From positions 1-11,594 of IMG/VR virus record IMGVR_UViG_2737471843_000006: 11,594 bases of DNA; one strand, written 5' to 3'. The notes under the pieces were generated by a model. That model saw nothing but the letters and a program-made list of their open reading frames with translations. It searched no databases and was not told the origin of the DNA. Shown in pieces: positions 3,842 to 6,972 of this stretch. Origin of the DNA: a virus (lineage: Duplodnaviria > Heunggongvirae > Uroviricota > Caudoviricetes). A program made the translations under genes and the position numbers. The stretch's first letter is position 1, and each line of letters opens with the position of its first letter.

Positions 3842-4033
3842 TTAAAATCCTGCCGGGATTTCGTTATTATCCTGGTGAATAACTTTATCGACCGGATAAC
3901 AGTTGCCTGGAATTTTCTGTTCGGTTGCTGCTGCCATACATTCCTGCATTGTTCTGTGAACACTGACTGCAATATCAACTGGCTCTCCGGAAACAAGAAA
4001 AACCGTCAGAATAAGTGCAAATACTGGATTCAT
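3842..4033 (-). CDS. Small exported or membrane protein (63 aa from ATG at 4033)
   Basis: ATG at 4033 preceded by AAGGA SD. Hydrophobic N-terminus MNPVFALILTVFLVSG looks like a signal peptide or TM helix with no lipobox Cys. Start overlaps the stop of the upstream gene (ATGA, 4030-4033). The track ORF begins at an earlier in-frame ATG (4087) with no SD. Confidence 0.45.
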   Translation of the reverse strand: MNPVFALILTVFLVSGEPVDIAVSVHRTMQECMAAATEQKIPGNCYPVDKVIHQDNNEIPAGF

Positions 4034-4218
4034 TGTGCACATCCTTTTGGCATCAGACGTAAACGGGCCAGCATTGAAACAATGCATACTTTATTTAATA
4101 ACTCCCGTTCGTGTTTTCTCTTGTTAATGGCATCTTCAGTAAATATAGGGTTACTGATAGTGACACCAATTTCAAAACAACCTTCAGACGTATTAACGTT
4201 TGGTAATAACGTTTTCAT
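4030..4218 (-). CDS. Hypothetical small protein (62 aa)
   Basis: ATG at 4218 with GAGGG SD 8 nt upstream. Sequence MKTLLPNVNTSEGCFEIGV...LMPKGCAQ. Translationally coupled to the downstream small exported protein. The track ORF extends to a GTG at 4323 with no SD. Confidence 0.45.
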   Translation of the reverse strand: MKTLLPNVNTSEGCFEIGVTISNPIFTEDAINKRKHERELLNKVCIVSMLARLRLMPKGCAQ

Positions 4219-4439
4219 TATCGCGCCCTCAACAATGAGTTTTGTGATGCGGTGCCTGGTGCCTCCAGGTGACGTTAACCAGTTAACAATTAACGCCGGA
4301 TACAGAGAATCCACCCATAACACTGTTTTTGGTTTTAACTGTTCCGCGTGCGCTCAGCCGCATTCACCACATCACAAAATTCACTTTAAAAAGGGCGGCA
4401 GAGCAGTCACGGAGTAAAACTGATACCGCCAAACGTCAC

Positions 4440-4786
4440 CAGAAAATTGATAACAGAGGGCGTTGCAGCGGGGTTGTCACTTAAGCGTATGGTCAACCTG
4501 ACAACCCGGTGTCCTCAACGGGGGAAGGAATAACCCCGCCATACTTACCGCCTCGCCATTTCGCGGATTGCCACAACCGGAAGCGCACGGTCGACGAAAA
4601 TTTAACGACAGGCTATCTATGAACCAGCTACCTCGCCGTGCGCTTTCGCGTTATGGTCTGACTTTTCAGGGAAATATCCTTTCAGTAAACTGTCAGTGCC
4701 GGATGCTCACCCGTGTCCGGCGCACGCACTCCACCTCACCCGTGGAGAACTCCTTAATTACCAACCTTAGCTTCGTTGGTTAGCTA
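4440..4786. other. Structured GC-rich non-coding region inside the early-left operon (candidate ncRNA, terminator or processing region)
   Basis: No ORF of 60 aa or more with an SD on either strand between 4219 and 4786. Perfect 9-bp inverted repeat GGGTTGTCA (4471-4479) / TGACAACCC (4499-4507). GC hairpins at 4519-4538, 4696-4723 and 4760-4780. Confidence 0.3.
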
Positions 4787-5005
4787 TTAACGCGGGTATG
4801 TAATCATTCTGGCAATGCTTAATGCCGCTGCTTTTTCCAGCCTGGTGATATCCTGTTCCAGAGCGGACAGATTTTCAGCCTGCTTAGCCCTGGCTTCATT
4901 GGCCCATTTCAGATCCTGCGCTGCATTAATTTTCTGGCGCATCCACTCATAAAGTTCATCATCGGTATAGTCTGGTGCGATGATGACGGGTTCTCGTTTC
5001 TGCAT
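4787..5005 (-). CDS. Hypothetical small protein (72 aa)
   Basis: ATG at 5005 with GAGGAA SD 7 nt upstream, stop TAA at 4787-4789. Part of the leftward chain of small genes downstream of the pL-like promoter. Confidence 0.5.
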   Translation of the reverse strand: MQKREPVIIAPDYTDDELYEWMRQKINAAQDLKWANEARAKQAENLSALEQDITRLEKAAALSIARMITYPR

Positions 5006-5034
5006 ACTGATTCCTCGCGGTGCTGTTTCGCTTA

Positions 5035-5163
5035 TCAGCCGTTAGATTTTGCCGAGCTGGAAAGCGCCTGTTTAAATTCGTTGAAGCTGAGAGCTTCTTC
5101 GCCGTCGGCAAGACCTTCGAAGTATTCTTCATAAGCCTTTTCCATGATTGTGTCGAAATCCAT
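5035..5163 (-). CDS. Hypothetical acidic mini-protein (42 aa; not in the ORF track)
   Basis: ATG at 5161-5163 preceded by AGGTGA SD, one nucleotide after the stop of the upstream gene (TGA 5165-5167). Translation MDFDTIMEKAYEEYFEGLADGEEALSFNEFKQALSSSAKSNG, stop TGA at 5035-5037. Confidence 0.35.
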   Translation of the reverse strand: MDFDTIMEKAYEEYFEGLADGEEALSFNEFKQALSSSAKSNG

Positions 5164-5164
5164 A

Positions 5165-5401
5165 TCACTCACCTGAGTTTCTTTCCAGCCAGCGACGGGC
5201 ACCATTTTCGGTTTTAAACGTTTTGCTTTTGGTATACGTCATCGCGGTGAACGTACCGTCCTGGTTGGGGAACACGCCACATACCAGAGATTCGCTGTTG
5301 CCAAGATCGATAGTATCCATGCTGACCTCATTTCCCCTTAACGCCGGGGTAGCGGAACAAAAACCTGCTGCATAGTTATTAAAGTTGAACCCTGCCGTCA
5401 T
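5165..5401 (-). CDS. Hypothetical small protein (78 aa from ATG 5401; alternative start at 5320 gives 51 aa)
   Basis: First gene downstream of the pL-like promoter. ATG 5401 has GAGG about 9 nt upstream; the internal ATG 5320 (MDTIDLG...) has a better-placed GAGG 6 nt upstream. Stop is tightly coupled to the next ORF. Confidence 0.4.
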   Translation of the reverse strand: MTAGFNFNNYAAGFCSATPALRGNEVSMDTIDLGNSESLVCGVFPNQDGTFTAMTYTKSKTFKTENGARRWLERNSGE

Positions 5402-5501
5402 GTTCTTACGCCTCGGGCTGGCTACTTAACCCCTGACCACTGCCTGGTAACTCGAGGTATTGCCCTGTATTGTGTGGGACGGGATGGGTTGGTATGGGAA
5501 A

Positions 5502-5546
5502 ACTATAGGAAATGCCTAATTACTTGTCAATAGGCTATGCCTAATA
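5502..5546 (-). promoter_or_regulatory. Left operator/promoter (OL/pL-like): -35 TTGACA (minus; plus 5524-5529), 16-bp spacer, -10 TATAGT (plus 5502-5507), overlapping operator palindromes
   Basis: Operator AATAGGCTATGCCTAAT at 5529-5545 and weaker site at 5504-5520, centres about 25 bp apart. 5524-5545 is the exact reverse complement of 6168-6189 on the other side of the repressor gene. Confidence 0.5.
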
Positions 5547-5638: not shown

Positions 5639-6115
5639 TTAAGTTCCTGTCTTGGTGATGTTCTGGCTTTTCCGTTTTGATTCTTGATTTTTCAGATAGT
5701 TAGCTACCTTCATTTCCATTGCGGCAATGTAGGCGCGAACGTCATGATCAACCCAACTAGGCTCCGTAGCATTTCCAGATAAGATGAAAGCCACAATTGC
5801 TCTTTTTTCATCAGAGGCGGCTTGATAAAGGCTGTTTATGTCTAAAAGTTCACTTTTTGTATCTGAAGTGGATGGGGTTGGTATGGGGTATTCGTTAAGC
5901 CCCCAATGCTCTGGACCAACCACATCAGAAAAGAAACGCCATAGTTCTGGAAGTTTGTCTTTACTTATCGAACCTTTCTTAATCCAGTCATGGATTGATG
6001 GTGGTTGGACTTTGAAATGACGTGCGATTTCCGCCTTTGATTTGACGGCTCCTGATGCAATTTTTTTGTTAATGGCCTGCTCTATCGCTCGGCCTAAGTC
6101 TTTACCACTAAGCAT
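5639..6115 (-). CDS. racR: Prophage repressor, HTH (XRE/cI-like) DNA-binding protein, RacR-like (158 aa)
   Basis: N-terminal HTH AEIARHFKVQPPSIHDWIKKG. Transcribed divergently from a Cro-like gene, with operator palindromes on both sides. Size and arrangement fit the racR-ydaS-ydaT module of Rac-type prophages; the symbol rests on architecture and memory, not on a search. Confidence 0.8.
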   Translation of the reverse strand: MLSGKDLGRAIEQAINKKIASGAVKSKAEIARHFKVQPPSIHDWIKKGSISKDKLPELWRFFSDVVGPEHWGLNEYPIPTPSTSDTKSELLDINSLYQAASDEKRAIVAFILSGNATEPSWVDHDVRAYIAAMEMKVANYLKNQESKRKSQNITKTGT

Positions 6116-6142
6116 TGCTTAATAGTCTCCTATGCGCATCGC

Positions 6143-6212
6143 GTTAGGCAATCCCTACTCTCGATGTATTAGGCATAGCCTATTGACAATTTAATTAGGC
6201 TAAGCCTAATAT
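6143..6212 (+). promoter_or_regulatory. Right operator/promoter (OR/pR-like): three operator sites and -35 TTGACA (6183-6188) / -10 TAATAT (6207-6212)
   Basis: Perfect palindrome ATTAGGC-TAA-GCCTAAT at 6194-6210, near-palindrome ATTAGGCATAGCCTATT at 6168-6184 and a weaker site at 6143-6159, centres 25-26 bp apart. The -35 and -10 overlap the operators. Confidence 0.55.
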
Positions 6213-6239
6213 TGTTGCGTGTTTTTTGGAGTTCATTCG

Positions 6240-6563
6240 ATGAAAAAAGATAACTATTCATTCAAACGAGCTTGTGCTGTTGTCGGTGGGCAATCAGCAA
6301 TGGCTAGGCTTTTAGGTGTATCTCCTCCAAGCGTAAATCAATGGATCAAAGGTGTACGTCAGTTACCTGCTGAGAGATGTCCTGCGATTGAACGAGCAAC
6401 AAAAGGTGGTGTCCTGTGTGAAGAACTTCGTCCTGATGTTGATTGGACATACTTACGACGCTCGTCATGTTATTCGCAGAATATGTCGATGAAGCAACCA
6501 AATGACGAAAACGATCATACCCGAAGCATCAAGAGGCAAATGATTCATGAAAATCAAACATGA
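6240..6563 (+). CDS. ydaS: Cro-like HTH regulator, YdaS-like (107 aa from ATG 6240)
   Basis: GGAG SD 9 nt upstream of ATG 6240. HTH SAMARLLGVSPPSVNQWIKG, with a recognition helix similar to that of the repressor. First gene of the rightward operon from the pR-like promoter. The track ORF starts at 6219 with no SD. Confidence 0.75.
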   Translation: MKKDNYSFKRACAVVGGQSAMARLLGVSPPSVNQWIKGVRQLPAERCPAIERATKGGVLCEELRPDVDWTYLRRSSCYSQNMSMKQPNDENDHTRSIKRQMIHENQT

Positions 6564-6972
6564 GCACATCCGCATGGCGATGAATGCCTGGGCATACCCT
6601 GATGGTGAGAAAGTTCCTGCAGCTGAAATAGCCCGGACTTATTTCGAACTGGGGATGACGTTCCCTGAACTGTACGACGACAGCCATCCGGAAGCCCTGG
6701 CCCGTAATACCCAGAAAATTTTCCGTTGGCTGGATAAAGACACCCCTGATGCTGTTGAAAAAATGCAGGCTCTGTTACCGGCGATCGAAAAGGCGATGCC
6801 GCCTTTGCTGGTGGCCCGTATGCGCAGCCACAGTTCTGAATATTACCGTGAGATCGTCGAACGGAGGGATCGGCTGGTGAAGGATGTCGATGATTTTGTT
6901 GCGTCAGCGGTTGTTTTGTATGACCAGATGAATCGCGGCGGCCCGGCAGGGAATGCTGTGGTGATGCACTAA
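6547..6972 (+). CDS. ydaT: YdaT-like protein (141 aa), proposed CII-like regulator or toxin of Rac-type prophages
   Basis: Start overlaps the ydaS-like gene by 17 nt, with AAGAGG upstream. Size and position match ydaT. Sequence MKIKHEHIRMAMNAWAYPDGEK... Confidence 0.7.
   Translation: MKIKHEHIRMAMNAWAYPDGEKVPAAEIARTYFELGMTFPELYDDSHPEALARNTQKIFRWLDKDTPDAVEKMQALLPAIEKAMPPLLVARMRSHSSEYYREIVERRDRLVKDVDDFVASAVVLYDQMNRGGPAGNAVVMH

Follow-up and report, generated by a model that had tools for sequence, protein, structure and literature searches.

Genes and features of the locus

The window analysed here is the whole stretch of 11,594 nucleotides, in which the spacer under study occupies positions 4219-4786 between two leftward genes, ydfC and dicB. 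Pfam further identified YdfD (DUF1482) and YdfA (DUF1391) among the other flanking ORFs and, farther out in the window, an integrase, an exonuclease VIII-like gene and a YdaS/YdaT-type immunity region. In the order of the minus-strand transcript, the locus contains the following features.

4787-5005, minus: ydfC; ORF, annotated as ydfC in records of 99.9% and 98% identity
4657-4786, minus: ydfC-proximal spacer with hairpins 4760-4780 and 4698-4721; no sign of selected structure
4572-4656, minus: long irregular hairpin with core duplex 4578-4590/4636-4648; fold and inverted repeat I3
4462-4577, minus: structured 5' domain of the 190-nt precursor, here called module B, with hairpin 4551-4566, GUAUGG 4539-4544, a GC hairpin at 4519-4538 and, at 4471-4507, the 9-bp inverted repeat; 40-copy alignment, pair counts and RNAalifold
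4393-4445, minus: DicF sRNA of 53 nt, with a single-stranded 5' seed and a terminator hairpin; Rfam, K-12 identity and fold
4388-4392, minus: U5 tract of the DicF rho-independent terminator (A5 on the plus strand); sequence
4234-4385, minus: conserved multi-hairpin RNA, STnc100/PasD-like, here called module D; fold, inverted repeat I1 and covariation
4230-4226, minus: dicB Shine-Dalgarno sequence GAGGG, just 3' of the module D stem; sequence
4030-4230, minus: dicB including its Shine-Dalgarno sequence, 62 aa, start codon at 4218; Pfam DicB (PF05358), 134 bits

Alignment with the ydfC-dicF-dicB region of the K-12 Qin prophage revealed 98% identity over the spacer. The 53-nt dicF sequence (b1574 in K-12) is identical in the window and K-12, and the few point changes and the 1-nt indel that distinguish the two all lie outside DicF. 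As in K-12, dicF is located between ydfC and dicB in a lambdoid early-left operon with the same gene order, and its distances to ydfC and dicB (about 340 nt and 174 nt) are those of the K-12 annotation. Of 5426 complete E. coli genomes, 4663 have a match to positions 4150-4850, with ydfC and dicB as the annotated neighbours, and the record of phage Tritos carries a 'DicF antisense sRNA' at the homologous position. Judged by the identity to Qin and the equal distances, the window is a mosaic lambdoid prophage with the classical ydfABC-dicF-dicB-ydfD ('dicBF') operon. Its early-left operon is Qin-like and its immunity region (5639-6972) is Rac-like from the Pfam matches to YdaS and YdaT; a 158-aa ORF at the repressor position in this region gave no Pfam match. 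The prophage of the nearest genome is integrated beside yccA, and a relBE pair is carried by that genome.

DicF and its terminator

A scan of the window against Rfam returned DicF (RF00039) at 4444-4393 on the minus strand as the single match above threshold, with a score of 76.7 bits (GA 48), an E-value of 6.6e-16 and coverage of model positions 1-52 of 52. The embedded non-coding RNA that the original prediction had listed among its options is DicF, as indicated by this full-length match. Folding of 4445-4388 left the first 15 nt unpaired, followed by a hairpin and then U5, which is the seed-hairpin-U-tract arrangement of DicF, and the terminator hairpin folds like the Rfam consensus. The GGCGG/CCGCC stem next to an A5 run, for which a terminator role had been suggested, is the DicF rho-independent terminator; the stem has a free energy of -15.9 kcal/mol and directly precedes U5. 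A simple generic terminator scan missed it because the loop exceeds the 8-nt maximum of that scan. The 5' end of DicF falls between CAA and UUU in an unpaired AU-rich stretch. RNase E prefers a U two bases after the cut, and the sequence at the DicF 5' end fits this preference.

Termination of DicF at the homologous K-12 site has been published (PMC9438474, PMC5069750). In K-12, DicF acts with Hfq on the ftsZ, xylR, pykA and manX mRNAs, and DicB acts on FtsZ through MinC (PMC9438474, PMC5069750). In a naive comparison of duplex energies, pairing of DicF with the ftsZ leader was no better than that of shuffled sequences (50 of 500), and the assignment of targets therefore rests on the identity to K-12 DicF and on the literature.

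Folding and composition of the spacer

The spacer had been described as a highly structured, GC-rich island. The first property was confirmed by folding of the minus-strand RNA from 4786 to 4219, which gave a minimum free energy of -215.8 kcal/mol compared with -186.6 ± 7.2 kcal/mol for shuffles (z -4.08, 0 of 100 as good). The second holds in a modest form: GC content is 0.512 in the spacer and 0.477 in the window (0.385 in the left flank and 0.481 in the right), but about 10% of 568-nt windows are equally GC-rich. All the stems previously listed were found in place, and the main ones were recovered by an independent repeat search.

4760-4780: ACCAAC/GTTGGT hairpin; sequence
4698-4721: GCCGGA/TCCGGC hairpin; sequence
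4519-4538: GGGG/CCCC hairpin; sequence
4471-4479/4499-4507: perfect 9-bp inverted repeat with a 19-nt spacer; sequence and repeat search (I4)
4394-4398/4426-4430: GGCGG/CCGCC stem adjoining A5 at 4388-4392; sequence

The surplus of structure is local and is contributed by the long hairpin at 4656-4572 and the stretch 4392-4205, which holds the dicF-dicB spacer. The ydfC-proximal part (4660-4786) folds in an ordinary manner (z -0.57, 63 of 200 shuffles as good); substitutions in K-12 weaken its hairpin at 4760-4780, and some homologues have a 29-nt deletion in this part of the spacer.

A conserved structured RNA between dicF and dicB

The fold of the dicF-dicB spacer (4392-4205) had a z-score of -4.01. 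The RNA within it, module D, is closed by a 20-bp stem (4385-4365/4254-4234). A consensus built from 24 diverse homologues contains 44 pairs, with 98% of cells paired. Thirteen of these pairs show compensatory changes, compared with 2.2 ± 1.2 in shuffles (0 of 500 as high) and 1-2 in slid controls. Comparison across homologues thereby supports the module D stems and marks module D as a genuine RNA of conserved structure; it is related to the STnc100/PasD prophage family, the subject of discussion in a preprint by Zhu, Shabalina and Storz (2026). It has the closing stem around several hairpins and the compensatory changes characteristic of that family. The Rfam STnc100 model (RF02076) scored 38.4 bits, below its GA of 47, over model positions 21-154 of 206, and by the Rfam threshold module D is not an STnc100 member. 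Copies of module D are located upstream of kilR in K-12 Rac, of kil in Shigella phage 75/02 Stx and of terB in P7, terB being typical of the neighbourhood of PasA/PasC; an unannotated Klebsiella phage record contains a related copy. The covariation-supported RNA in the dicF-dicB spacer goes beyond existing annotation.

Processing of the operon transcript

In K-12, a polycistronic transcript is made from a repressor-controlled promoter upstream of ydfA. The 53-nt DicF has its 3' end formed by rho-independent termination and its 5' end by RNase E; RNase III generates the 5' end of a 190-nt species and, on read-through transcripts, the 3' end of a 72-nt species (PMC10448788, PMC9438474, PMC5069750). 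The RNA species, nucleases and targets described here are carried over from this work on a sequence of 98% identity, and on that basis would apply to the window. Transcript boundaries are published for K-12, and the hairpins of the window sit where the RNase III and RNase E products of its K-12 counterpart end, which bears out the RNA-processing site among the functions originally proposed.

Two duplexes in the window, the long hairpin at 4656-4572 and the closing stem of module D, have the roughly 20 bp or more of mostly continuous pairing expected of an RNase III substrate, and cleavage is predicted at both. The long hairpin is exceptionally stable (-37.4 kcal/mol, z -3.43, 0 of 200 shuffles as good), and phage cdtI and Salmonella phage F1055 have hairpins at the same position with differing stem sequence and loops. 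Arithmetic from the published K-12 RNA lengths, as distinct from mapped ends, puts the RNase III cuts at about 4583 and about 4374. The former falls midway along the long hairpin's 13-bp core duplex and the latter inside the 5' arm of the 20-bp stem; both predicted cuts thus lie within the two strongest duplexes, one of which is covariation-supported. We infer that the long hairpin is the RNase III site that forms the 5' end of the 190-nt precursor (~4583) and that the 20-bp stem is the site that forms the 3' end of the 72-nt DicF (~4374).

According to the proposed mechanism, once the repressor is relieved the polycistronic ydfA-ydfB-ydfC transcript would run through the spacer, and part of the polymerases would terminate at the hairpin and U5 at 4430-4388. 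RNase III would cut the long hairpin at 4656-4572 and release the 190-nt species, from which RNase E cleavage in the single-stranded AU-rich stretch at about 4445 would yield the 53-nt DicF. On read-through transcripts, RNase III cleavage of the 20-bp closing stem would produce the 72-nt DicF as well as a 5' end for the dicB mRNA. DicF would then bind Hfq and pair with ftsZ mRNA, as well as with xylR, pykA and manX mRNAs, to block cell division, while DicB would hit FtsZ via MinC.

The single-sequence fold also pairs the U tract after the DicF terminator (4386-4391) with the dicB Shine-Dalgarno region UUGAGG (4226-4232); these pairs are absent from the consensus fold. Because of this pairing, read-through transcripts might mask the dicB ribosome-binding site until RNase III has cut.

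We are highly confident that the region, with the minus strand as its sense, is the ydfC-dicF-dicB spacer of a lambdoid E. coli prophage, that it belongs to the early-left (dicBF) operon and that it serves DicF and its processing. This confidence applies to the joint reading, namely locus identity, DicF, and termination and RNase processing within the spacer. Locus identity, DicF membership, the stems and the dicF-dicB spacer covariation are direct results of the present analysis, and no evidence contradicting identification as the DicF locus was found.

The 5' domain of the DicF precursor

Module B, a conserved domain to which the 9-bp inverted repeat and the GC hairpin at 4519-4538 belong, likewise goes beyond existing annotation. 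Folded alone (4455-4582) it is ordinary (z -0.2). Its structure has weak support: across 40 distinct copies with a mean identity of 91%, the loops are invariant and the stems tolerate mismatches. The loop of the 9-bp inverted repeat, CCAUAC (4487-4492), is able to pair with GUAUGG (4539-4544), forming a candidate pseudoknot. All six of its pairs are kept, and they are nearly invariant and hence leave little to test; RNAalifold favours this helix over the 9-bp inverted repeat. In a possible outer helix (4570-4577/4462-4469), pairs change from C-G to U-A and from G-U to G-C, with equal counts in a control slid by +3. The Rfam scan of the window gave no match for module B.

A sensitive search of phage genomes revealed that separate segments of the spacer recur independently. 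Module B was found without DicF in phage cdtI, Stx2c phages, Salmonella phage F1055 and P7. Sufficient flanking sequence was available for 130 copies; in 129 of these a hairpin and T-run come within the next 125 nt, and the sequence between module B and the T-run falls into at least eight seed and terminator classes. The Rfam DicF model misses the variants tested, including the cdtI type, L108, L119, L079, L019 and P7. When one genome per species was scanned, module B was essentially restricted to Escherichia, apart from a few MAG contigs that are likely contaminants.

P7 (AF503408, L005) has its module B copy at 4049-3875 on the minus strand, with the C1 operator Op(ban) about 50 nt upstream. 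Behind this copy come a 20-nt seed (GCGUUACGAGCUUCCAGUUU) and then a strong terminator (GCCCAUCUUCGGGUGGGC-U6). By sequence, the P7 copy would be an RNA of DicF architecture heading the ban/tRNA operon; no description of a leader RNA for the P1/P7 ban operon was found in the literature searched. In the same genome, ARAGORN calls a tRNA-Ser(tga) at 2726-2812 on the minus strand that is unannotated in the record, and long hairpins (CACAACAGGUAAGGGCA...UGCUCUUACCGUUGUG) that resemble the RNase III-type hairpin of the window recur between tRNA genes (for example at 3275-3195).

A tentative possibility, which we hold to be the less probable view, is that DicF belongs to a modular family of phage RNAs that combine a conserved, possibly pseudoknotted 5' domain having its own function with exchangeable cassettes of seed and terminator. 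DicF and KilS would then share with several unnamed variants a functional 5' domain and a structured downstream leader, most of the classes being unnamed. If such a family is real, the 5' domain may guide RNase III/RNase E processing, stabilise the 190-nt species or help passage through the terminator.

The last of these functions relates to an improbable alternative, that module B (4462-4577) is a cis-acting RNA with an activity of its own, such as put-like read-through of the DicF terminator, possibly besides DicF production. Such read-through would let RNA polymerase reach dicB, exo, xis and int, and the operon does have an intrinsic terminator preceding essential early genes yet is without an N-like gene. 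The near-constant hairpin and T-run behind module B and the invariance of its loops are in line with this idea, as is P7, where module B follows the C1-controlled ban promoter and the terminator must be passed to reach the tRNAs and ban. The comparison with phage HK022 argues against it. In sequence, module B is not similar to the early region of that phage, in which the put sites lie; a blastn search of HK022 24.0-33.5 kb at word size 7 produced only chance matches of 11 nt. The published features of putL (the A3-G7/C15-U19 duplex, U28 and G35) have no visible counterpart in module B. HK022 has both putL and putR, whereas in the scan list module B is present in one copy per matching locus and in the leftward operon only, and it is promoter-proximal in P7 only; in the window it lies far from the promoter, downstream of ydfA, ydfB and ydfC. 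The ordinary fold energy and the outer-helix counts matched by the slid control point the same way, and partial factor-free read-through has already been described in K-12 (PMC10448788, PMC9438474). A put-like antiterminator was therefore largely rejected on HK022 similarity, copy number and position, and is kept as a low-probability rival. A search for boxA (GCUCUUWA, up to 1 mismatch) found none on the minus strand of 4219-4786, with a total for the window within chance, and the boxA-like UGCUCUUA of the P7, cdtI and F1055 copies was rejected as a nut element, being the 3' arm of their long hairpins. The antitermination site offered among the original options finds backing neither from HK022 nor from a boxA on the transcript.

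Other readings of the spacer

Production of DicF or dicB mRNA from a promoter of its own inside the spacer, instead of by processing of the operon transcript, is very unlikely. An older study, as cited in PMC10448788, proposed a promoter upstream of dicB; the same RNA architecture lies directly behind a promoter in P7, and a start site of its own has been suggested for KilS, the Rac counterpart (PMC8175672). Against this, a promoter scan of the minus strand over 4000-5500 turned up no sigma-70-like site, no internal promoter was detected in K-12 by primer extension and RT-PCR, and the 190-nt 5' end is lost without RNase III in K-12 (PMC10448788). Processing of the operon transcript remains the preferred reading.

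It is hardly credible that the inverted repeats work as a DNA site for protein binding, recombination or partition, another of the functions initially put forward. The perfect 9-bp repeat with its invariant spacer sequence could be read in this manner, but the repeats are within a transcribed operon spacer whose RNA products were mapped in K-12 (PMC10448788), and the compensatory changes in the neighbouring module D, G-U pairs among them, maintain pairing in the RNA. The adjacent genes include none for partition or a recombinase, int and xis being more than 3 kb away.

The original prediction saw no convincing ORF on either strand, and we came to the same view. The statement that minus-strand ORFs are of 21 codons or fewer applies to ATG starts only, since a 31-codon GTG ORF is present at 4493-4588 (minus); within it, a run of C differs by a 1-nt indel between the window (CCCCC) and K-12 (CCCC). 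The plus-strand ORF extends to 71 codons from a TTG start. It is open in most close homologues, and hypothetical proteins have been called across the spacer in some phage records. It is nonetheless antisense to the operon, some homologues have an in-frame stop and some a frameshifting 29-nt deletion, and its substitutions are even over codon positions (31/37/34; 76 non-synonymous and 26 synonymous), although this test has little power because the ydfC control is itself weakly skewed (15/16/21). K-12, RefSeq and Tritos have no gene annotated in the spacer, and homologues have no gene here of which it could be a decayed form. A present or former protein-coding region (the plus-strand ORF of 54-71 codons at 4568/4619-4783, or a decayed gene) is accordingly dismissed as extremely improbable, and both the plus-strand and the 31-codon minus-strand ORF were rejected on the indel, stop, deletion and even substitutions, the codon test being weak.

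Annotation and significance

The element, DicF with its processing spacer, has been known since 1989-1990 and occurs in the majority of E. coli genomes; it is not new, and the novelty implied by the original prediction, in which the locus went unrecognised as DicF, is unsupported. DicF was among the first bacterial regulatory RNAs described, and how it is processed out of the spacer has been mapped in K-12. The RefSeq record NZ_CM171611 (L001, 6070-6637) leaves dicF unannotated, and phage records ON470619, ON470612 and others have hypothetical proteins annotated across the spacer. Readers working from sequence alone can be expected to go on rediscovering DicF because it is either unannotated or overlaid by such proteins. 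The module D RNA and the reuse of the 5' domain in lambdoid and P1-like phages are of modest interest for the evolution of prophage sRNAs.

Pieces of the spacer, up to 97.5% identical, also occur in MT713136 (Aeromonas phage AP1, 249906-250142), in PP818812 (an Actinobacillus phage) and in the MAG contigs L136 and L138. These records are assigned to the unrelated hosts Aeromonas, Actinobacillus, Veillonella and Collinsella, and the pieces in them are likely due to contamination or chimeric assembly.

Comparison with known systems

The closest known system is dicF of K-12 Qin, which shares with the window the 53-nt sequence, ydfA-ydfB-ydfC upstream, dicB-ydfD downstream and the spacings. Relative to Qin, the prophage of the window is seemingly a more complete mosaic, with int, xis and exoVIII, and it has a Rac-like YdaS/YdaT immunity region.

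The KilS sRNA of K-12 Rac (Bar et al. 2021, PMC8175672) occupies the DicF slot and ends 176 nt upstream of kilR, which likewise encodes a cell-division inhibitor. The slot lies at 5406-5503 on the minus strand of L141 (K-12 Rac), corresponding to 4393-4445 of the window. KilS carries a GGCGG...CCGCC-U5 terminator like that of DicF, and module D comes next as it does in the window, while the KilS seed differs from that of DicF. K-12 Rac is without module B, whereas another Rac-like locus, L108, has it.

The closing stem and 3' hairpins of STnc100/PasD (Zhu, Shabalina and Storz 2026 preprint) are matched by the dicF-dicB spacer. Unlike STnc100/PasD, module D is an intra-operon spacer or dicB leader and not a separately described sRNA. 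Module B and the HK022 put RNA both comprise several stem-loops, and both precede terminators in lambdoid early operons that lack N; module B differs from the put RNA in being single-copy, away from the promoter in the window, dissimilar in sequence and of putative activity.

RNase III processing hairpins are known from phage early transcripts, examples being the T7 early region and the lambda N leader. Those of the DicF locus are likewise long, imperfect intercistronic duplexes of at least 20 bp, and the ends mapped in K-12 are RNase III-dependent, as in the phage early-transcript hairpins. Unlike cleavage at hairpins of the T7 and lambda type, the cuts at the DicF locus also release a trans-acting sRNA.
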